DNA of 64,000 bases from Escherichia phage vB_Eco_F26. The notes below the pieces were generated by a model that was given only the letters and a program-made list of their open reading frames with translations, was not told where the DNA came from and made no database searches. Shown here piece after piece: positions 281-39,036 of this stretch. Position 1 is the first letter of the stretch; every line of letters starts with the position of its first letter. The position numbers and the translations under genes were made by a program. The DNA is taken from the sequence record OP870145.1; one strand, 5' to 3'.

Positions 281-1564
281 ATGGCTAAAATCAACGAACT
301 TCTGCGCGAATCAACCACAACGAATAGCAACTCAATCGGTCGCCCAAATCTCGTTGCTTTGACTCGCGCTACCACTAAATTAATATATTCTGACATTGTA
401 GCAACGCAGAGAACTAATCAACCTGTTGCTGCTTTTTATGGTATCAAATACCTTAACCCAGACAATGAATTTACATTTAAAACTGGTGCTACTTATGCTG
501 GCGAAGCTGGATATGTAGACCGAGAACAAATCACAGAATTAACAGAAGAGTCTAAATTAACTCTCAATAAAGGCGATTTATTCAAATATAATAATATCGT
601 TTATAAAGTATTAGAAGATACACCATTTGCTGATATTGAAGAAAGTGATTTAGAATTAGCTCTTCAGATTGCAATTGTTCTTTTAAAGGTTCGTCTATTT
701 TCTGATGCTGCAGTAACAAGCAAATTTGAAAGCTCTGATAGTGAAATTGCGGATGCTAGATTCCAGATTAATAAATGGCAAACCGCAGTTAAATCTCGCA
801 AACTTAAAACTGGTATCACAGTTGAATTAGCACAAGATTTAGAAGCAAATGGATTCGATGCTCCTAATTTCTTGGAAGATTTGCTTGCAACTGAAATGGC
901 AGATGAAATCAATAAAGATATTCTGCAATCTTTGATCACAGTGTCAAAACGCTATAAAGTTACAGGAATTACTGATAGTGGATTCATCGATTTGAGTTAT
1001 GCATCTGCACCTGAAGCTGGTCGTTCATTATACCGAATGGTATGTGAAATGGTTTCACATATCCAAAAAGAATCAACTTATACAGCAACGTTCTGTGTTG
1101 CTTCAGCTCGTGCTGCTGCGATTCTTGCTGCATCAGGTTGGTTAAAACATAAACCGGAAGATGATAAATATCTTTCACAAAATGCCTACGGGTTCTTAGC
1201 TAATGGTTTACCGCTTTATTGCGATACTAACAGCCCATTAGATTATGTAATCGTTGGTGTAGTAGAAAATATCGGTGAAAAAGAAATTGTTGGATCAATT
1301 TTCTATGCTCCGTATACAGAAGGTCTCGACTTAGATGACCCTGAACATGTAGGTGCGTTTAAAGTTGTTGTTGATCCAGAAAGCTTACAGCCGTCTATCG
1401 GTTTATTAGTTAGATATGCTTTATCAGCAAATCCTTATACCGTAGCAAAAGATGAAAAAGAAGCAAGAGTAATTGATGGTGGAGACATGGATAAAATGGC
1501 GGGTCGTTCAGATTTGTCTGTTTTATTAGGTGTTAAGCTACCAAAAATTATCATTGATGAATAA
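281..1564 (+). CDS. 24: head vertex protein gp24
   Basis: 427 aa ORF; same length as T4 gp24, capsid-like fold signature, directly downstream of gene 23. Confidence 0.9.
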   Translation: MAKINELLRESTTTNSNSIGRPNLVALTRATTKLIYSDIVATQRTNQPVAAFYGIKYLNPDNEFTFKTGATYAGEAGYVDREQITELTEESKLTLNKGDLFKYNNIVYKVLEDTPFADIEESDLELALQIAIVLLKVRLFSDAAVTSKFESSDSEIADARFQINKWQTAVKSRKLKTGITVELAQDLEANGFDAPNFLEDLLATEMADEINKDILQSLITVSKRYKVTGITDSGFIDLSYASAPEAGRSLYRMVCEMVSHIQKESTYTATFCVASARAAAILAASGWLKHKPEDDKYLSQNAYGFLANGLPLYCDTNSPLDYVIVGVVENIGEKEIVGSIFYAPYTEGLDLDDPEHVGAFKVVVDPESLQPSIGLLVRYALSANPYTVAKDEKEARVIDGGDMDKMAGRSDLSVLLGVKLPKIIIDE

Positions 1565-29015: not shown

Positions 29016-30603
<1,588 letters not shown>

Positions 30604-30630
30604 AATAAAATGGGCCTTGCGGCCCACTCC

Positions 30631-31133
30631 TTAAAAGTATTTTTTAAAACTCATCATAACTTTATCATCAACATCATTATCAATCTGTGCAACAAGGTAA
30701 GATGACAGTTCTACTTCTTGTGGCGCGGATTGAACATTATCAGAATTAAGATATTCACGAATCCAAGGATATGGGTGTTTAACCGGAGCATCGGTAATTG
30801 GGCATGGAAGACCACACTGTTTCATACGAGATACAGTTAAGTAATCAATAAAGCTCCACATGCTATTTGTATTTAATCCAGGAACATCGCCATCTTTAAA
30901 TAAATGAACTGCCCAATCTTTTTCTTGGCGGTTAACTTCCATGAAAATATCAACTGCTTCTTGTTCACACTCTTGAGCAATTTTAACCCATTCATCACCA
31001 TCAGTACCGGATTGAAGCTGACGAATAATATATTGAGTGCCTTTAAGGTGAAGCTGCTCATCACGTGCAATGAACTTCATAATCTTGGCATTACCTTCCA
31101 TGATTTCCATGTTCTTATGGAAGTTAAAGGTAC
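30631..31133 (-). CDS. nrdB: ribonucleotide reductase small subunit NrdB, exon 2
   Basis: Encodes ...TFNFHKNMEIMEGNAKIM... to C-terminus; joins exon 1 across a group I intron. Confidence 0.75.
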
Positions 31134-31725
31134 CGTTATGTTCGATTGAGCTCGCTAATTCTCAACCCGTTCTCTTATGAACTGCTACATATTACTATGC
31201 AGACCAGACTATATCACAATCCCAGAGGGATTCTCCCCATTTCGAGTCGCTTGACCCTACGTCCGAAGACTAGTCGTTGAACCTTGCTTTGCAATTGTCG
31301 CCGTGCCATCGTTTATATGTTGATGGTGATAAATCTTTCTTATCACAATATGGACAATTCAATTGAATTCTATTTGGATTTAATTTACATCTGTCATTAT
31401 GTTTTAGATAAAATCCAGGACCTTTACCAATGTGACCACAGAAATCACATGTGATTTCTTTTTGTGCAGGATGGGTCCCGTTCTTAACCATTTCTAATGT
31501 TTTTGCTGATGTTCTTTTCTTATGGTCTTCCATCAGAATCTTTAGGTAGGTCCGTTAGCATCTATCCAAATTTTTCTATAGTTCAATTGTGCATCCTCTT
31601 AAAAGTATAATCATATTATACTAATTAAAGGTGCAAGCAAAACCTTGGCTGCTAGTTTTCCTATAAAGGACTTTCTAGCAATTAAAGGAGTTTTCGATAA
31701 ACGTTACCGTTTAAAGGCGCATTTT
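31134..31725 (-). mobile_element. group I self-splicing intron in nrdB (boundaries +/- a few nt)
   Basis: Exon 1 ends GCGU with U.G pair to intron GCGC (P1); intron ends in G; predicted junction restores conserved FYVSFA-C-TFNF. Confidence 0.65.
31270..31533 (-). pseudogene. truncated I-TevIII-like intron ORF remnant
   Basis: 87 aa with Cys-rich zinc-finger-like motifs but no HNH catalytic region. Confidence 0.55.
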
Positions 31726-32401
31726 ACGCAAAAGATACATAAAAACGAATAGCTTCTAAGGCATTAATAACGTGCAAACAGAGGTAAAGAGATTTCATTA
31801 AAGCACGTTTAGCTTCGGCTTCTTGTTTAATAGCTCGGTTTAAACGAAAGTCGGCATCAGGAGATTCTTTAGCTAGTTCTACAAATTCTTTAGCATTTTC
31901 CCATTCACGGGTTTTAGTCAGAACATCATCATAATAACGACCGATAGATTCAGCACGTTTCATAATAGCTTCATCTAATACAATCTCATCAAATACCTTT
32001 GACGGATCAGTATAAAGATTTCGCATGATATGAGTATATGACCGACTGTGAATAGTTTCACTAAAAGTCCATGTAGCAACCCATGTATCAAGGCTTGGGT
32101 CTGAAAGCAATGGCATAAGTACAGCAGACGGCGCACGACCTTGAATACTATCAAGTAATGATTGATACTTCAGATTATTAGTAAAAATATTTTGTTGATA
32201 CTGAGGAAGCTTATTAAACTGTGCAGCATCCATCATTAAGTTAACTTCTTCGGGACGCCAGAAAAACGAGAGCGAACGTTCAATAAGTTCTTCAAATACT
32301 CGATGTCGTTGAATATCATAACGCGCAATTCCAAGACCAGACCCAAAAAACATAGGTTCTTTTAAAACATCGACCTGTTTAGTATTAAAAACTGTACTCA
32401 T
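31726..32401 (-). CDS. nrdB: ribonucleotide reductase small subunit NrdB, exon 1
   Basis: Ferritin-like diiron residues; ends ...NALEAIRFYVSFA immediately before intron. Confidence 0.8.
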
Positions 32402-33993
32402 TATTTTGTCCTGTAAACTAAATTTCCACAGTCCCAGATTCTTCTAAGACCATTTGCATAACAATTTTCTACTTCAGTTATTGTATCATCATAATTTTTA
32501 AGCTTGTTTTTAAGCTTATGTTTCATATAGCTTGAGCGGTGAAATACCTCTCCTTTATCGACGTACCAATAACATGGCTCAGAGATATGACTAAATTCCA
32601 TGACAGAGTCATAAACATTTGATAATGTACTGCACCATCTTCGATTGCCATAAGATAGACAATTAATTCCTTTTAATAATTTTGAGGCTCCTCCTACAAC
32701 ACAAATCCCTAATTTTGAACACATCCTTAAAAGTTCATCACCTGAGCTATATCTAGATTTACCGATAGAAATAATTTGAACTAACTCATTATTGTAATAA
32801 AGTCCTTTATACGTATGAGCTCCTGAGCAAAATCCTTGAAGATGATTCTTATTAATAAATTCTTTTGCCTCATCCTTATTAACAAAACGCGCTTTGCATT
32901 TTCGGGCTGGTATTCTTTCTGATAATCCTAATTTATGCTTTATAATGGATTTCCAGATCTCTCTTTTTGTATCATCAATCCATTCATTTTCGAAGATGTG
33001 AAGTAATTGAATTCCTTGTGCTTCACACATCTCTGTCTTCATCAAATGATAAGTTTCTTTAATTTTATCTGTTTCCTTTGACCCGCTAGAATGCCAATAA
33101 ATTCCATCGTATTCTATAGCCAATTTTTTCTCAGGAATGTAAATATCTAATTCATACGGAGGAATAATTTTTCTAGTTTCTACGCAATCAAATCCTAGAT
33201 CTAAAATGAATTGCTCTATAGAACTTTGAGTATAATGAACGTCAATTAGTCCTTTGGATGAAAGAGCTCTATAAGCCGTCATCCGAGAACAATTTGCTAA
33301 TTGTTGTAGTTCTTCTATAGAAATTTTGTAATTGATTTTATCTAGTATATCATGATTAATATGACCGTTATTTTTAATAGATTTTCCTATAGATGAATAT
33401 AACGATGCCTTATATTCTTCAGTCCAATTTAATTTAGTCTTCTTAGATTTTTCGCGAGATTTTCGAGAATTCAGAATATCAACTGATTTACCGTTTTCTA
33501 TAACTTTTCTCGCTTCTTTCACACTTTCTAATTGTGAATTATGCGTTACCCCATATCGTTTAATTAAAGTTTTTCTATTTTTATTTCTTGAAATTTTTTG
33601 ATGAGTTGTTCCATATTTTTCTAAAGAATTTTTGCGTTGAAGTTCAGACAAATATTTTTTATATTTTTCTTTTCCGCCAAAATTTGTATCACGGCTTTGA
33701 ATTCTCTTATCCGCGAAAAATATCCCTGAGCAGGATTTACTACATGTTGCTGGAAATACACGTTTCTTTGCTGTTTTCAGAGAAATGAAATTTCCACAAA
33801 CTGCACATTTTAGATCGTTAATGTCAATGCCTTCCATAATTTGGAACACATTGAGCTTAAAATCTATTCCATCAGTTAGAAGAGCTTTATCTTCTTCTGT
33901 TAGTCTAGATTTAAGTTTTTCTTCTCCAAATGGAAGAAACTTTCCGTTTTTGTATATATTATCAAACATAGCGTTATTCTTAGTTAACCACAT
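32401..33993 (-). CDS. composite nuclease-like protein: Zn-ribbon-like, KYGxTH repeats, HTH, Vsr-like (PD-(D/E)xK) nuclease domain and C-terminal Cys-rich domain
   Basis: 530 aa; YELDIYIPEKKLAIEYDGIYWHS...QGIQLLHIFENEW matches DUF559/Vsr-like core; stop overlaps nrdB start (TAATG). Confidence 0.65.
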   Translation of the reverse strand: MWLTKNNAMFDNIYKNGKFLPFGEEKLKSRLTEEDKALLTDGIDFKLNVFQIMEGIDINDLKCAVCGNFISLKTAKKRVFPATCSKSCSGIFFADKRIQSRDTNFGGKEKYKKYLSELQRKNSLEKYGTTHQKISRNKNRKTLIKRYGVTHNSQLESVKEARKVIENGKSVDILNSRKSREKSKKTKLNWTEEYKASLYSSIGKSIKNNGHINHDILDKINYKISIEELQQLANCSRMTAYRALSSKGLIDVHYTQSSIEQFILDLGFDCVETRKIIPPYELDIYIPEKKLAIEYDGIYWHSSGSKETDKIKETYHLMKTEMCEAQGIQLLHIFENEWIDDTKREIWKSIIKHKLGLSERIPARKCKARFVNKDEAKEFINKNHLQGFCSGAHTYKGLYYNNELVQIISIGKSRYSSGDELLRMCSKLGICVVGGASKLLKGINCLSYGNRRWCSTLSNVYDSVMEFSHISEPCYWYVDKGEVFHRSSYMKHKLKNKLKNYDDTITEVENCYANGLRRIWDCGNLVYRTK

Positions 33994-34009
33994 CCTTGTG
34001 GTAATTATA

Positions 34010-34999
34010 TCATAATTTACAGGATGAACAATCTTCAGCTTTTGGAGTTTCTATTTCATAATCATCAGTGCCAGAACCATCGCGGGTATTATGATAATAG
34101 AAATTTTTTCCGCCAAAATACCAAAAATACAAAAGGTCATCAATCATTATTGACATTGGAACCTTTCCTTTTGGAAAAATCTGCGGGTCATAGTATGTAT
34201 TCGCTGAAGCTGATTGACATACCCATTTCAGCATAATAGCTACCTGCGTAAGATAAGGTTTATTACCTTTCTTAGCTAATTTCCATGTATAATCATAGAG
34301 GTCTATGTTATGCTCAATATTGGGCACGACTTGATTAAAGGAGCCCTCTTTTGATTCTTTAACAGAGACTGGTCCACGTGGAGGCTCGATACCGTTTGTA
34401 CTGTTAGAAACTTGGGAAGATGACTCACATGGCATAAGTGCTGATAATGTGCTATTACGGATGCCAAAGAGCTTAAGGTCTTCCCGCAGCGCCGACCAGT
34501 CACAAACGTATTTTGGAGCTGCGATTTGGTCAATCTTTTTATTGTACCAGTCGATAGGTAATTCGCCTCGAGACCAACGAGTGTCTGAATAATATTCGCA
34601 AGGTCCTTTTTCTTTGGCGAGCTTAATGGATGCTTTAATGAGTCCATACTGTAATCTCTCAAATAGTTCATGTGTTAAATCGTTAGCATCTTCATAAGAA
34701 GCAAAGTTGCTTGCCAGCCAAGCTGCATAGTTAGTAACACCTACACCGAGGTTACGACGCTTTTTAGCTTTTTCTGCTTCAGGAACTGGATATCCTTGAT
34801 AATCCAAAAGATTATCAAGAGCGCGAACTTGAACTTCTGCCAATTCATTAATTTTATCTTGGTCTTGCCAATCGAAGTTATCCAGTACGAAGGCAGAGAG
34901 AGTACAAAGCCCCACTTCTCCCTTGTTTTCAATAACTTTTATTGTAGTATACTCATCATCTTCGTAAAATTCATCTACAAATTCATAATCAATATTCAT
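34010..34999 (-). CDS. nrdA: ribonucleotide reductase large subunit, C-terminal fragment (NrdA-b)
   Basis: 329 aa; acidic 23-aa head then ENKGEVGLCTLSAF... NSTLSALMPCESSSQ ... YYHNTRDG. Confidence 0.85.
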   Translation of the reverse strand: MNIDYEFVDEFYEDDEYTTIKVIENKGEVGLCTLSAFVLDNFDWQDQDKINELAEVQVRALDNLLDYQGYPVPEAEKAKKRRNLGVGVTNYAAWLASNFASYEDANDLTHELFERLQYGLIKASIKLAKEKGPCEYYSDTRWSRGELPIDWYNKKIDQIAAPKYVCDWSALREDLKLFGIRNSTLSALMPCESSSQVSNSTNGIEPPRGPVSVKESKEGSFNQVVPNIEHNIDLYDYTWKLAKKGNKPYLTQVAIMLKWVCQSASANTYYDPQIFPKGKVPMSIMIDDLLYFWYFGGKNFYYHNTRDGSGTDDYEIETPKAEDCSSCKL

Positions 35000-35831
35000 T
35001 TAATTCTTCTACCTTTTTTCTAGTAATTCCTAAAGCTTTAGATGCTCGATGTATTGATTGATATTCTATACCGTTTATTTTTACAGCAATTAAGTTATGG
35101 GGTTTTAATCCCTTTGGATGAGGTTTACTGACGAAAACTAAATTATCAAGCTCTGAAATCTTATCCAATTTCTTACACTTAAATCCTTTGTGATGCGCCC
35201 GTTTACCTTTACAAACGGCTGACATTGCAGATGAATTTAAATTATGCTCTTTACAAAATTCGTTAAGACCTCGATGAATTTCCTCATGACCATCCGGAAA
35301 TGTAAACACCCAAGATGTTTGAAGTCGAGATTTAACTTCTGGAGACATAGGAATACCTTTGTTCCAAGCTGGTTTGCCTTTATTATTTTCAGATACAGAA
35401 ATAGCCAATTTTCTTCTAAGCCACCCATGGCGTTTATTGGTGTTCTTTCGTTCAATATTATCTTCAGAATAAACACACATCATATTAGCGGCAAATATCA
35501 ATTTATGATTATCTGGATATATCTTTACTAATAATTGATGAGCTATGTAATGCTCTTCTGGCGTCAAATCTACCAGGTTTTCCTTTGTATCAGAACCACC
35601 AATACACAGAGGTATAATATGGTGTGATTCGGTATAGCAATCTAATTTTCTGTTCTTAGCTTTAGAAATAAGGTTATTGTAAATTTTAGAATAATCCATA
35701 ACTTTTCCTCTTGTTATGGATTATTTATTAACGGTCTGTGTACTTTATTTGCTTTGAATTATACCGCCAGGATTAGCTTCATAAAACTTAGCTACATCCG
35801 ACTTCTTAATTTTGATTAAACGGGTTTGTTG
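34930..35831 (-). mobile_element. about 0.9 kb insertion splitting nrdA (HNH gene plus new stop/start tails)
   Basis: NrdA homology ends at ...IPTNDVNS (N-part) and resumes at ENKGEVGLC (C-part); intervening DNA holds HEG. Confidence 0.55.
34989..35699 (-). CDS. Mob-type HNH homing endonuclease inserted within nrdA
   Basis: 236 aa; HHIIPLCIGGSDTKENLVDLTPEEHYIAH; paralog of ORF 6842..7534; stop overlaps NrdA-b start by 11 nt. Confidence 0.8.
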   Translation of the reverse strand: MDYSKIYNNLISKAKNRKLDCYTESHHIIPLCIGGSDTKENLVDLTPEEHYIAHQLLVKIYPDNHKLIFAANMMCVYSEDNIERKNTNKRHGWLRRKLAISVSENNKGKPAWNKGIPMSPEVKSRLQTSWVFTFPDGHEEIHRGLNEFCKEHNLNSSAMSAVCKGKRAHHKGFKCKKLDKISELDNLVFVSKPHPKGLKPHNLIAVKINGIEYQSIHRASKALGITRKKVEELNEY

Positions 35832-37178
35832 GCTATTCACATCATTTGTTGGAATAGCAATTTCACAGCACAAGTTACTCTGACGAATAGGTGCCTTTTC
35901 ACGAATAAACGGAGTATAGTTATTCGTATTATCAATGAACTGCACATAAATCCTTGCTGTTCCTGATCGTTCAGTCATGAGCAATTCAAACAGTTCACGG
36001 GCTTTAATACGCTTTTTACGAATATTAGGGTCTTTTTCTGCGGCTTCGTATAATTCACGGAAACGGTCTTGGTCTTTAAAATAAGAATAATAAAGTTCGC
36101 CACCCATTTCATGCGGACTGAACAAAGTAATGTAATCGTTCTTTCCGAATCGTTCCATCATCAAATCATTCAGCTGAACACCATAATCCATGTGACGAAT
36201 GCGGTTTTCTTCTACGCCTTTGTTATTTTTCAAAACGAGAAGATTTTCAACTTCCAAATGCCAAATAGGATAATAAGCAGTAGCAGCGCCGCCACGAATT
36301 CCACCCTGTGAACATGATTTAACAGCAGTCTGAAAATGTTTCCAAAAAGGAATAACACCAGTATGGCGTACTTCACCCATGCCAATCTTAGAACCTTCGG
36401 CACGAATCATACCAACGTTAATACCAATTCCAGCGCGTTTAGAGATATATTCAACAATTGAAGCGGAAGCCTTATTGATAGACTTTAATGAATCACCTGC
36501 CTCAATAACAACACATGAACTAAACTGTCGAGTCGGAGTACGACAACCAGCCATAATAGGAGTTGGCAATGAAATCTGTCGAGTAGATACTGCTTCATAA
36601 AAACGAATAACATGTTTTAGTCTATCAACAGGTTCATCTTGATGCAATGCCATTCCAATAGTCATAAATGCAAACTGTGGGGTTTCATAAATTTGACCGG
36701 TGGTTTTATCTTTAACTAGATATTTTTCTTTTAATTGCATCGCCCCGGAATAAGTAAATTCCATATCCCGTTCGTGCTTAATTTTTGATTCTAAAAATGT
36801 AATTTCTTCTGCTGAATATTTTGACAATAATTCAGGGTCATATTTACCTTCATTTACACAGTAAGAAATATGGTCAATAAATGAACGCGGTTCATACTGC
36901 CCATAAACATGCTTACGAAGAGCGAACATTAAACAGCGTGCAGCTACATATTGATAATCAGGTTCTTCAACCGAAATAGAATTCGCAGCAGCCTTAATGA
37001 CAATAGTCTGAATATCATCAGTTGTCATTCCATCACGGAGATAAGATTTAATATTTTCATATAATTCATAAGGATCTACTGATGTTCCCTCAGCTGCCCA
37101 AGATAAAACTTTAATAATTTTTTGTGGGTCAAAGCTCTGAGAAACACCACTACTTTTGATAACATTAATTAATTGCAT
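35745..37178 (-). CDS. nrdA: ribonucleotide reductase large subunit, N-terminal fragment (NrdA-a)
   Basis: 477 aa; ATP-cone, CRTPTRQFSSC, ...RQSNLCCEIAIPTNDVNS then basic 28-aa tail. Confidence 0.85.
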   Translation of the reverse strand: MQLINVIKSSGVSQSFDPQKIIKVLSWAAEGTSVDPYELYENIKSYLRDGMTTDDIQTIVIKAAANSISVEEPDYQYVAARCLMFALRKHVYGQYEPRSFIDHISYCVNEGKYDPELLSKYSAEEITFLESKIKHERDMEFTYSGAMQLKEKYLVKDKTTGQIYETPQFAFMTIGMALHQDEPVDRLKHVIRFYEAVSTRQISLPTPIMAGCRTPTRQFSSCVVIEAGDSLKSINKASASIVEYISKRAGIGINVGMIRAEGSKIGMGEVRHTGVIPFWKHFQTAVKSCSQGGIRGGAATAYYPIWHLEVENLLVLKNNKGVEENRIRHMDYGVQLNDLMMERFGKNDYITLFSPHEMGGELYYSYFKDQDRFRELYEAAEKDPNIRKKRIKARELFELLMTERSGTARIYVQFIDNTNNYTPFIREKAPIRQSNLCCEIAIPTNDVNSQQTRLIKIKKSDVAKFYEANPGGIIQSK

Positions 37179-37495
37179 AAGTCCTCAACTTGAAAATCGT
37201 CTTTAAACAATCGGTTAACTATATGAGCTATTATATCACCATGACACGGCTTTGGTTTACATGTGCATCCTAGCCTCATTCCACGTAAAGGCTCTAAATG
37301 TGCTTTAGTTATTTCTCCAGATTTAATTCGACGTATAAAATCTTTTTTGAATAATTCAATGGCAGCCTCCCGGCTGCCAGCATCTTTACCGACGTAATTT
37401 CCCCAAAATGTACCGCGGTGAATATTAACATCAAAGTCGGATTTATATTTATTCACTACCCGGCATAGACGGCCCACGCTGGAATAATTCTTCAT
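37169..37495 (-). CDS. DUF4326-like small protein
   Basis: 108 aa; motif [15 protein letters not shown]. Confidence 0.45.
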
Positions 37496-37712
37496 ATTGT
37501 TTTTCCGTTAAAACAGTAATATCGTAGTAACAGTCAGAAGAAGTTTTAACTGTGGAAATTTTATTATCAAAATACTCACGAGTCATTTTATGAGTATAGT
37601 ATTTTTTACCATAAATGGTAATAGGCTGTTCTGGTCCTGGAACTTCTAACTCACTTGGGTTAGGAAGTGTAAAAAGAACAACGCCAGAAGTATCTTTAAA
37701 TCGTAAAATCAT
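37449..37712 (-). CDS. hypothetical protein
   Basis: 87 aa ORF. Confidence 0.4.
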
Positions 37713-38020
37713 ATTGCCATTTTCCCTTTAATTGCTGGATGCGATTCATAATTTTCAAGGATAAAATCTTTCGGTTTCATGTATTCAGTTAACCAGTAAA
37801 GCTGTGTTTCGGTGTCACAATTTCCAAACTCTATAGGCCAATCAATTTTAAGTTCACACAGTTCTTTAGGCTCACGACGTAAAATTTCTTTACATTGCTC
37901 AGTATGATTCATATAGATGTGAGTATTACCACCAGAAAATATCAAATCTCCTGGGATAAGATTACACATCTTAGCTACAATATGAACTAGTGCAGCATAT
38001 GATGCAATATTAAACGGTAG
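37709..38020 (-). CDS. td: thymidylate synthase, exon 2
   Basis: Begins [14 protein letters not shown]...; joins exon 1 to give conserved [14 protein letters not shown]. Confidence 0.85.
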
Positions 38021-39036
38021 CATTATGTTCAGATAAGGTCGTTAATCTTACCCCGGAATTATATCCAGCTACATGTCACCATGCAGAGCAGACTATATCT
38101 CCAACTTGTTAAAGCAAGTTGTCTATCGTTTCGAGTCACTTGACCCTACTCCCCAAAGGGATAGTCGTTAGGCATTTATGTAGAACCAATTCCATTTATC
38201 AGATTTTACACGATAAGTAACTAATCCAGACGAAATTTTAAAATGTCTAGCTGCATCTGCTGCACAATCAAAAATAACCCCATCACATGAAATCTTTTTA
38301 ATATTACTAGGCTTTTTACCTTTCATCTTTTCTGATATTTTAGATTTAGTTATGTCTGAATGCTTATGATTAAAGAATGAATTATTTTCACCTGAACGAT
38401 TTCTGCATTTACTGCAAGTATAAGCAGAAGTTTGTATGCGAACACCGCACTTACAAAACTTATGGGTTTCTGGATTCCAACGCCCGTTTTTACTTCCGGG
38501 TTTACTGTAAAGAGCTTTCCGACCATCAGGTCCAAGTTTAAGCATCTTAGCTTTAACAGTTTCAGAACGTTTCTTAATAATTTCTTCTTTTAATGGATGC
38601 GTAGAACATGTATCACCAAACGTTGCATCAGCAATATTGTATCCATTAATTTTAGAATTAAGCTCTTTAATCCAAAAATTTTCTCGTTCAATAATCAAAT
38701 CTTTCTCATATGGAATTTCTTCCAAAATAGAACATTCAAACACATTACCATGTTTGTTAAAAGACCTCTGAAGTTTTATAGAAGAATGGCATCCTTTTTC
38801 TAAATCTTTAAAATGCCTCTTCCATCTCTTTTCAAAATCTTTAGCACTTCCTACATATACTTTATTGTTTAAAGTATTTTTAATCTGATAAATTCCGCTT
38901 TTCATAAATACCTCTTTAAATATAGAAGTATTTATTAAAGGGCAGTCCTACAATTTAGCACGGGATTGTCTACTAGAGAGGTTCCCCGTTTAGATAGATT
39001 ACAAGTATAAGTCACCTTATACTCAGGCCTCAATTA
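38021..39036 (-). mobile_element. td group I self-splicing intron (1016 nt)
   Basis: 5' end UAAUUGAGGCCUGAGUAUAAGGUGACUUAUACUUG... after exon CUUGGGU; 3' end ...AACAUAAUG; contains I-TevI ORF. Confidence 0.85.
38168..38905 (-). CDS. I-TevI GIY-YIG homing endonuclease
   Basis: 245 aa; MKSGIYQIKN...KVYVGSAKDFEKRWKRH GIY-YIG motif; C-terminal zinc finger and HTH. Confidence 0.9.
   Translation of the reverse strand: MKSGIYQIKNTLNNKVYVGSAKDFEKRWKRHFKDLEKGCHSSIKLQRSFNKHGNVFECSILEEIPYEKDLIIERENFWIKELNSKINGYNIADATFGDTCSTHPLKEEIIKKRSETVKAKMLKLGPDGRKALYSKPGSKNGRWNPETHKFCKCGVRIQTSAYTCSKCRNRSGENNSFFNHKHSDITKSKISEKMKGKKPSNIKKISCDGVIFDCAADAARHFKISSGLVTYRVKSDKWNWFYINA

Follow-up and report, generated by a model that had tools for sequence, protein, structure and literature searches.

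An open reading frame (ORF) of Escherichia phage vB_Eco_F26 (sequence record OP870145.1) is very probably the free-standing homing endonuclease gene hef, inserted between nrdA and nrdB. The 175-residue domain with which its product ends appears, from profile and model comparisons, to be a GNAT domain related to the Mom protein of phage Mu. The window analysed here is the whole stretch of 64,000 nucleotides in which this gene lies, and all positions refer to it. The gene call itself is routine: hef was reportedly described by Sandegren, Nord and Sjoberg in 2005 (Nucleic Acids Res 33:6203), and the nuclease fold of its product was classified in 2011. The new angle is confined to the extra domain of the very large Hef family (more than 2,700 clusters), which would be Mom-like, shows a conservation as strict as that of the nuclease and retains key residues of Mom; since Mom chemistry was worked out in 2026, assays for the same activity in Hef exist. 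The gene and the modules of its product are as follows.

32401..33993, minus strand: maximal ORF of hef, 530 aa plus stop, with an ATG start; its TAA stop shares one base with the nrdB ATG (TAATG)
32401..33969, minus strand: probable coding sequence (CDS) of hef from M9, 522 aa, supported by ortholog starts, the annotation of phage SG1 and model confidence
33718..33822, minus strand: putative four-cysteine zinc ribbon, residues 58-92 (C63, C66, C84, C88)
33358..33717, minus strand: helical repeat region, residues 93-212, with KYGTTHQ and RYGVTHNSQ repeats
33244..33357, minus strand: putative helix-turn-helix (HTH)-like segment, residues 213-250
32929..33243, minus strand: Vsr-like / EDxHD nuclease domain, residues 251-355 (D283, H301, H316, K319 and H332 invariant)
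32404..32928, minus strand: predicted Mom-like GNAT domain, residues 356-530 (H384, R423, S437, R452 and Y461 invariant or nearly so)

The Mom-like domain and its nuclease partner

Residues 356-530 find no direct family match in Pfam, NCBIfam or a profile search of the PDB, and the Pfam family Mom (PF25680) is not matched by the C-terminal domain of this copy even at E up to 10. Relatives of Hef match PF25680 above its cutoff, and 20 of 37 family C-terminal domains match it, the best at E 1.6e-9. When the domain is modelled with AlphaFold2 (AF2; predicted local distance difference test, pLDDT, 93.5), its top match among solved structures by two methods is phage Mu Mom (8BV8), with a Foldseek E of 5e-7 as against 3.5e-4 for the next GNAT, and the full-length model returns the same top match. 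Aligned by HHalign with a profile of 45 Mom proteins, a profile of the Hef C-terminal domain scores a probability of 93.3% (E 2.7e-7, 130 columns); against the single Mu Mom sequence the probability is only 4.6%, so that the Mom-family profile is needed. By these comparisons the extra domain of Hef is predicted to be a Mom-like GNAT domain, and a diverged relative of Mom rather than a Pfam Mom member by the curated cutoff. The suspicion, voiced in a preliminary description of this DNA made from its sequence alone, that a mobile nuclease had acquired an extra domain is in this respect supported, although neither the 2005 description of the gene nor the Mom-like, not GIY-YIG-like, character of the domain was known to it.

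Mom modifies adenine in double-stranded DNA in a glycyl-tRNA-dependent manner, and a 2026 study gives its active-site set as H58, Y59, R111, S124, D149, R151 and Y159, of which R111, S124 and R151 are essential; an insertion at 175-209 is also required for activity (PMC13219725). The residue numbering of that study agrees with the 241-aa Mu ORF. Residues were mapped from Mom to Hef through the profile alignment, and conservation, here and below, was counted over 121 sequences. Four positions of the set are kept.

Mom H58, Hef H384: 119 of 121
Mom R111, Hef R423: 120 of 121
Mom R151, Hef R452: 121 of 121
Mom Y159, Hef Y461: 119 of 121

S437 is invariant as well; it lies in a likewise invariant GG-x-S loop, where the next helix begins. 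In GNATs such a loop holds the cofactor's phosphate, and S437 is plausibly the structural equivalent of Mom S124. Between the last strands of the Hef domain, at the place of Mom's DNA-binding insertion, lies an insertion of about 30 residues in which R486 and K491 are invariant and H492 and K493 nearly so. Mu Mom (8BV8; PMC7261163, PMC13219725) and the Hef domain share both the GNAT fold and an insertion between its last strands; they differ in that identity is only about 16-19%, that W48 of Mom is not conserved, that the cofactor loop of Hef (GGxS) is more canonical than Mom's, and that the Hef domain is fused to a nuclease whereas Mom stands alone. The domain had been called Cys-rich, a term that does not suit its three well-conserved cysteines, C366, C425 and C522 (each in 100-110 of the 121 relatives). 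No recognisable metal-binding motif was found among these three and C323 of the nuclease domain, which is conserved in 118 of 121; iron binding by Mom was reported in an earlier study.

The closest parallel in architecture is offered by the jumbo-phage fusions of Mom with a restriction endonuclease (REase), which likewise combine a Mom-family GNAT with a nuclease of the restriction-endonuclease fold and were predicted to form a modification-plus-restriction pair (PMC7824862). That account makes no mention of Hef, Vsr or homing endonucleases, and Hef differs from the fusions in that it is a reported site-specific homing endonuclease and comes from a T4-like phage whose size is ordinary. No work joining Hef or EDxHD with Mom or GNAT was found in the literature consulted.

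For the nuclease core, the Vsr-like character indicated by its sequence is an assignment already published, as "bacteriophage Hef type homing endonucleases" were placed in the Vsr-like "EDxHD" family (Taylor et al., 2011; PMC3239194). Searched as a single sequence, this copy gives Pfam matches that are weak but consistent (MTES_1575, 1.7e-5; DUF559, 0.0019; Vsr, 0.14), a PADLOC "HEase" match at 5.6e-5 and a match to 3R3P at E 0.03. A profile of 37 family nuclease domains matches 3R3P (I-Bth0305I) over the whole domain at E 6e-7, its sole significant PDB match, which bears out the Vsr/DUF559-type core proposed in the preliminary description. D283 and H301 correspond in the alignment to the catalytic residues D196 and H213 of I-Bth0305I and are invariant in 121 of 121 sequences, as are H316, K319 and H332; D309, the last D of EDxHD, is present here and in 72 of the 121, and three of the four named residues of the motif are found in this copy. 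I-Bth0305I, the prototype of the EDxHD family, thus has a catalytic domain homologous to that of Hef, in which its catalytic Asp and His are kept, and in both proteins the nuclease domain is preceded by an N-terminal region, which in Hef is presumed to bind DNA. I-Bth0305I is, however, intron-encoded, 266 aa long and ends with the nuclease domain, whereas Hef is free-standing, carries the extra 175-aa Mom-like domain and, instead of NUMOD motifs, for which Pfam gave no match, has a putative zinc ribbon and YG repeats.

The Cys-containing N-terminal region that had been noted in the translation comprises C63, C66, C84 and C88, which are conserved in 112-117 of 121 homologs and fit a zinc ribbon; relatives of Hef match Pfam DUF4379, a treble-clef zinc finger. 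The YG-repeat region that follows is presumed to be DNA-binding and target-specifying; it is mostly helical in the AF2 model over residues 93-212 and corresponds to Pfam DUF7487, which relatives match above cutoff and this copy weakly (E 0.036). On the HTH-like segment Pfam HTH_11 scores E 0.05, below threshold, and the model places helices at 226-233 and 237-246, a helix-turn-helix-like pair (residues 226-246). These modules diverge far more than those behind them: over 120 homologs, mean identity to Hef is 55% in the nuclease and 50% in the Mom-like domain, as against 15-25% in the leader, zinc ribbon, repeats and HTH segment, with the repeat region at only 14.5%. Likewise, all 120 top homologs have detectable nuclease and Mom-like segments, but no more than 11-19 have detectable N-terminal modules. 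Where the N-terminus is kept, as in a metagenomic contig, Yersinia phage phiR1-RT and Acinetobacter phage Acj9, the gene is likewise found between nrdA and nrdB; in a 43% relative whose N-terminus differs, it is found between gp24 and gp23. We infer that target choice is the task of the N-terminal region, and that nuclease and Mom-like domain together make up a working core that stays constant. The full-length AF2 model (pLDDT 93.3) is confident also across the link between nuclease and GNAT, and its predicted template modelling score (pTM) of 0.64 leaves the relative position of the modules uncertain; a fold search with this model was swamped by GNAT matches and is uninformative on the nuclease and N-terminal folds.

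hef in the nrdA-nrdB hotspot

Over all 1,593 nt the ORF has a DNA identity of 99.4% to the hef gene of phage U5 (AY262133; annotated "hef: Hef, homing endonuclease"). It is intact at a DNA identity of at least 99.1% in 16 phage records, U5 among them (megablast, phage genomes), it matches PHROG 3339 "homing endonuclease" at E 6e-152, and more than 2,700 Hef homologs were detected; these three results show that it is not a chance reading frame. U5 Hef is in effect the same gene, at the same nrdA-nrdB position and with the same overlap with the nrdB start, and the two loci differ in that the upstream ATG annotated in U5 is AAG here and that nrdA is here additionally split by an HNH endonuclease gene. 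hef is accordingly an already known gene with ordinary homing-endonuclease biology: Hef has been reported in a review to cleave nrdB and is summarised elsewhere as an endonuclease whose cleavage sites lie close to its own locus, and "Hef-like" is an accepted annotation class, of which the LIMEstone1 phage carries four copies (PMC3296691). Promoter and terminator scans around hef gave hits at chance level only.

The preliminary description had the coordinates exactly, placing the ORF between the C-terminal fragment of nrdA and nrdB with its stop overlapping the nrdB start, and all the motifs that it quoted are found in the translation. Its length of 530 aa holds for the maximal ORF, and the CDS is likely the shorter one of 522 aa. 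The motif MF(D/E)NI is the start in all three orthologs compared (L006, L007 and L009, at 73, 65 and 50% identity and likewise located between nrdA and nrdB) and corresponds to M9 here; the SG1 annotation of hef begins at the equivalent of M9; and residues 1-7, with pLDDT below 50, are the sole low-confidence part of the Hef model. In place of the start annotated in U5, an in-frame ATG lying 42 nt upstream, the window has AAG (34033..34035, minus strand), a replacement brought about by the change of an nrdA codon from GAT to GAA (Asp to Glu). Since this ATG has been replaced, the upstream start is dispensable, and this together with the ortholog starts, the SG1 annotation and the low confidence of residues 1-7 makes M9 the likely start of hef.

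The gene sits between the C-terminal piece of nrdA (34010..34999) and nrdB exon 1 (31724..32401), and is carried by only 16 of the 678 phage records that match a query of hef and both its flanks. In most hef-less records, such as RB14, nrdA and nrdB are about 50 nt apart; T4 and T6 hold mobE in the same slot (T4 also nrdB.1), and other hef-less records hold a NUMOD3-type endonuclease gene there. hef is a presence/absence polymorphism in a homing-endonuclease hotspot, which bears out the free-standing mobile nuclease that had been surmised, and it was rightly not recognised as a T4 gene. MobE of T4 resembles Hef in its position, in being a free-standing homing endonuclease and in being reported to cut nrdB, and is unlike it in belonging to the unrelated HNH family, in its length of 141 aa and in being without a GNAT domain.

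The boundaries of the insertion are clean when the window is compared with RB14 and T4: the sequence ...TGTAAATTATGATATAATT is common to all genomes compared, after which RB14 has a 44-nt spacer and the window has ACCACAAGG and hef, which runs straight into the nrdB ATG. Two small features accompany the insertion.

33994..34009, minus strand: left insertion junction, with TATAATT common with hef-less phages and then the hef-specific ACCACAAGG, by comparison with RB14 and T4
32372..32383, minus strand: hef-linked patch in nrdB (nt 19-30), with ACTAAACAGGTC (T K Q V) in place of the hef-less ACAAATCCAGTT (T N P V)

Clean junctions and patchy occurrence are together what a hotspot gene for a free-standing homing endonuclease would be expected to show; a review covers the general course of homing, from cleavage through recombinational repair to co-conversion of flanks (PMC2988022). 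The nrdB patch reads ACTAAACAGGTC in all hef+ genomes examined and ACAAATCCAGTT in hef-less RB14 and T4, and amounts to five changes in 10 nt, two of them altering amino acids (N8K, P9Q), within near-identical surroundings. Across the phage collection the patch accompanies hef exclusively; the best 15 matches to nrdB nt 1-70 are all hef+, the best hef-less record reaching only 90.0%, and Gln for Pro at nrdB codon 9 occurs also in diverged hef+ lineages. Judged by its sequence, the patch could be a cleavage-resistant variant of the target site or a scar of co-conversion. As a separate observation, hef-less phages have in their 44-nt spacer (empty nrdA-nrdB site at 1092..1142 of the RB14 locus) a short inverted repeat, GACTC-ATGGAC-GAGTC, which is lost in hef+ genomes, where nrdB translation is joined instead to the hef stop.

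Possible roles of the Mom-like domain

During co-infection Hef would cut the genome of a hef-less relative in or near nrdB, and recombinational repair from the hef+ genome would then copy hef and its flanks into the break. What has been published of this scheme is that Hef cleaves, that it does so near its gene, and that co-conversion is the general mechanism, and an identity of 99% suggests that it applies to the present copy. Within the scheme the Mom-like domain would belong to the conserved catalytic core and not to the target reader, and it may engage a DNA adenine at or near the cut site, since most of the residues that Mom needs for a flipped-out adenine in double-stranded DNA are kept together with the GGxS loop. 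What it would do there admits two answers, those of a modifier and of a structural module, which appear about equally likely. The domain may, in a tentative reading, be an active DNA adenine acyl- or aminoacyl-transferase, which would make Hef a fused restriction-modification enzyme that protects its own target and cuts unmodified, hef-less genomes. Near-invariance of the equivalents of R111, R151, Y159 and H58 and of the GGxS loop speaks for this reading, as do a conservation about as tight as that of the nuclease, the known action of Mom on double-stranded DNA with Gly-tRNA, and the same logic that Iyer et al. (2021; PMC7824862) predicted for Mom-REase fusions in jumbo phages. It is just as conceivable, short of an even chance, that the domain is catalytically dead and is kept as a DNA-binding or clamping, base-flipping or dimerisation module that positions a single-site nuclease for a double-strand break. 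Mom is a dimer with a DNA-binding insertion, cutting by I-Bth0305I needs dimerisation, and the insertion of Hef bears the invariant or nearly invariant basic residues R486, K491, H492 and K493 at the corresponding place; this copy also falls below the Pfam Mom threshold, and the changes at D149 and Y59 described below would suit a dead domain. Such a role would nevertheless leave invariant S437, the GG motif and the Mom-specific arginines unexplained, and these conserved arginines and the cofactor loop argue against a mere scaffold; the residue W48 of the Mom dimer, moreover, is one of those that Hef does not keep.

Several points weigh against the modifier. Mom Y59 is replaced by Hef L385 (Leu in 115 of 121) and Mom D149 by N450 (Asn in 94 and Asp in 27, hence Asn in 78% of the family), changes that argue against a chemistry identical to Mom's, and Mom S124 is paired by HHalign, ambiguously, with the variable I430. 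In a covariation check with pocket residues, the choice of Asn or Asp at position 450 tracks W453 and a subfamily signature; the alternation reflects phylogeny and is no guide to the activity of the domain. A nuclease and a modifier would also compete for one site in one cell, the hef-linked nrdB patch offers a simpler, sequence-based route to immunity, and no modified adenine other than that of Dam methylation is known to have been reported in T-even DNA. Against the explanation of Hef as a whole stands that, in the nuclease, the first Glu of EDxHD is Gln256 here, although it is Glu in 107 of the 121 relatives. The activity and target of Hef are known here from secondary accounts and GenBank annotation, and DNA modification by Hef is a prediction from sequences and models. 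Hef is further said, in the abstract of the 2005 work, to cut the DNA of its own phage in vitro; self-cutting, if that account is correct, would oppose immunity by sequence yet fit protection by modification.

Two further explanations are much less probable. Hef might be a phage weapon or anti-restriction system that does no homing, its Mom-type modifier protecting the phage genome and its nuclease degrading host or competitor DNA, as the published prediction for the jumbo-phage Mom-REase fusions would have it. This is improbable in view of the presence/absence polymorphism at a hotspot where mobE or other endonuclease genes alternate, of the cleavage reported close to Hef's own locus, of N-terminal regions that vary with the locus occupied, of the several paralogues per genome that adjoin conserved genes, and of the rarity of hef among close relatives (16 of 678). 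That the ORF is a fusion artefact or a decaying pseudogene, or that its C-terminus is a second nuclease of the GIY-YIG type, is scarcely credible. For the last of these there is only the faint motif resemblance of the stretch GLYY...ISIGKSR, which the preliminary description had remarked upon; GLYY...GKSR forms two beta-strands of the GNAT in the model, the C-terminal 175 aa have a GNAT fold and yield no Pfam GIY-YIG match at E up to 10, and an artefact is further opposed by the ORF being intact in the 16 records, by the high pLDDT of the full-length model and by an architecture that is the same in orthologs down to 50% identity.

Taken as a whole, the proposal that Hef-type homing endonucleases are a site-specific nuclease fused to an active Mom-type adenine modifier, marking their own target and cutting unmarked rivals, must be considered rather unlikely. 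If it were true, a homing endonuclease would be built like a single-chain restriction-modification enzyme, and it would become clear why a free-standing endonuclease leaves its own genome uncut. Well-studied phages would then possess a new, site-local DNA modification, and T4-like phages would carry "momylation" of a local kind, or some related acyl mark, for which nobody has searched.

Other endonuclease genes of the nrd region

Four endonuclease-type genes lie within about 6 kb of the nrd region. The nrdA gene upstream of hef is in two pieces (34010..37178, minus strand), an N-terminal piece of 477 aa (35745..37178) and a C-terminal piece of 329 aa (34010..34999), separated by an ORF for an HNH / I-HmuI-NUMOD endonuclease (34989..35699). 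Both pieces bear additional tails where the gene is split, reminiscent of the divided nrdA in Aeromonas phage Aeh1, and the arrangement recurs in 34 phage records, 12 of them at an identity of at least 99%; the hef+ phage SG1 has an intact nrdA. An Rfam search of 29500..38500 at gathering thresholds returned nothing, the known nrdB intron included, and so cannot decide on an intron at the nrdA split.

Downstream of hef, nrdB is interrupted between exon 1, which ends at 31724, and exon 2 (30631..31110), leaving a gap at 31111..31723. An 87-aa ORF in this gap (31270..31533, minus strand) matches only positions 184-269 of the 269 positions of PHROG 12324, "intron-like DNA endonuclease", and by this alignment appears to be a truncated I-TevIII-like remnant, as in T4. 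Directly downstream of nrdB lies an ORF of 144 aa for a GIY-YIG protein (30193..30627, minus strand; Pfam GIY-YIG, 4.8e-6; PHROG 1111 "endonuclease", 2.3e-65), which adjoins nrdB also in the diverged hef+ loci L006 and L007.

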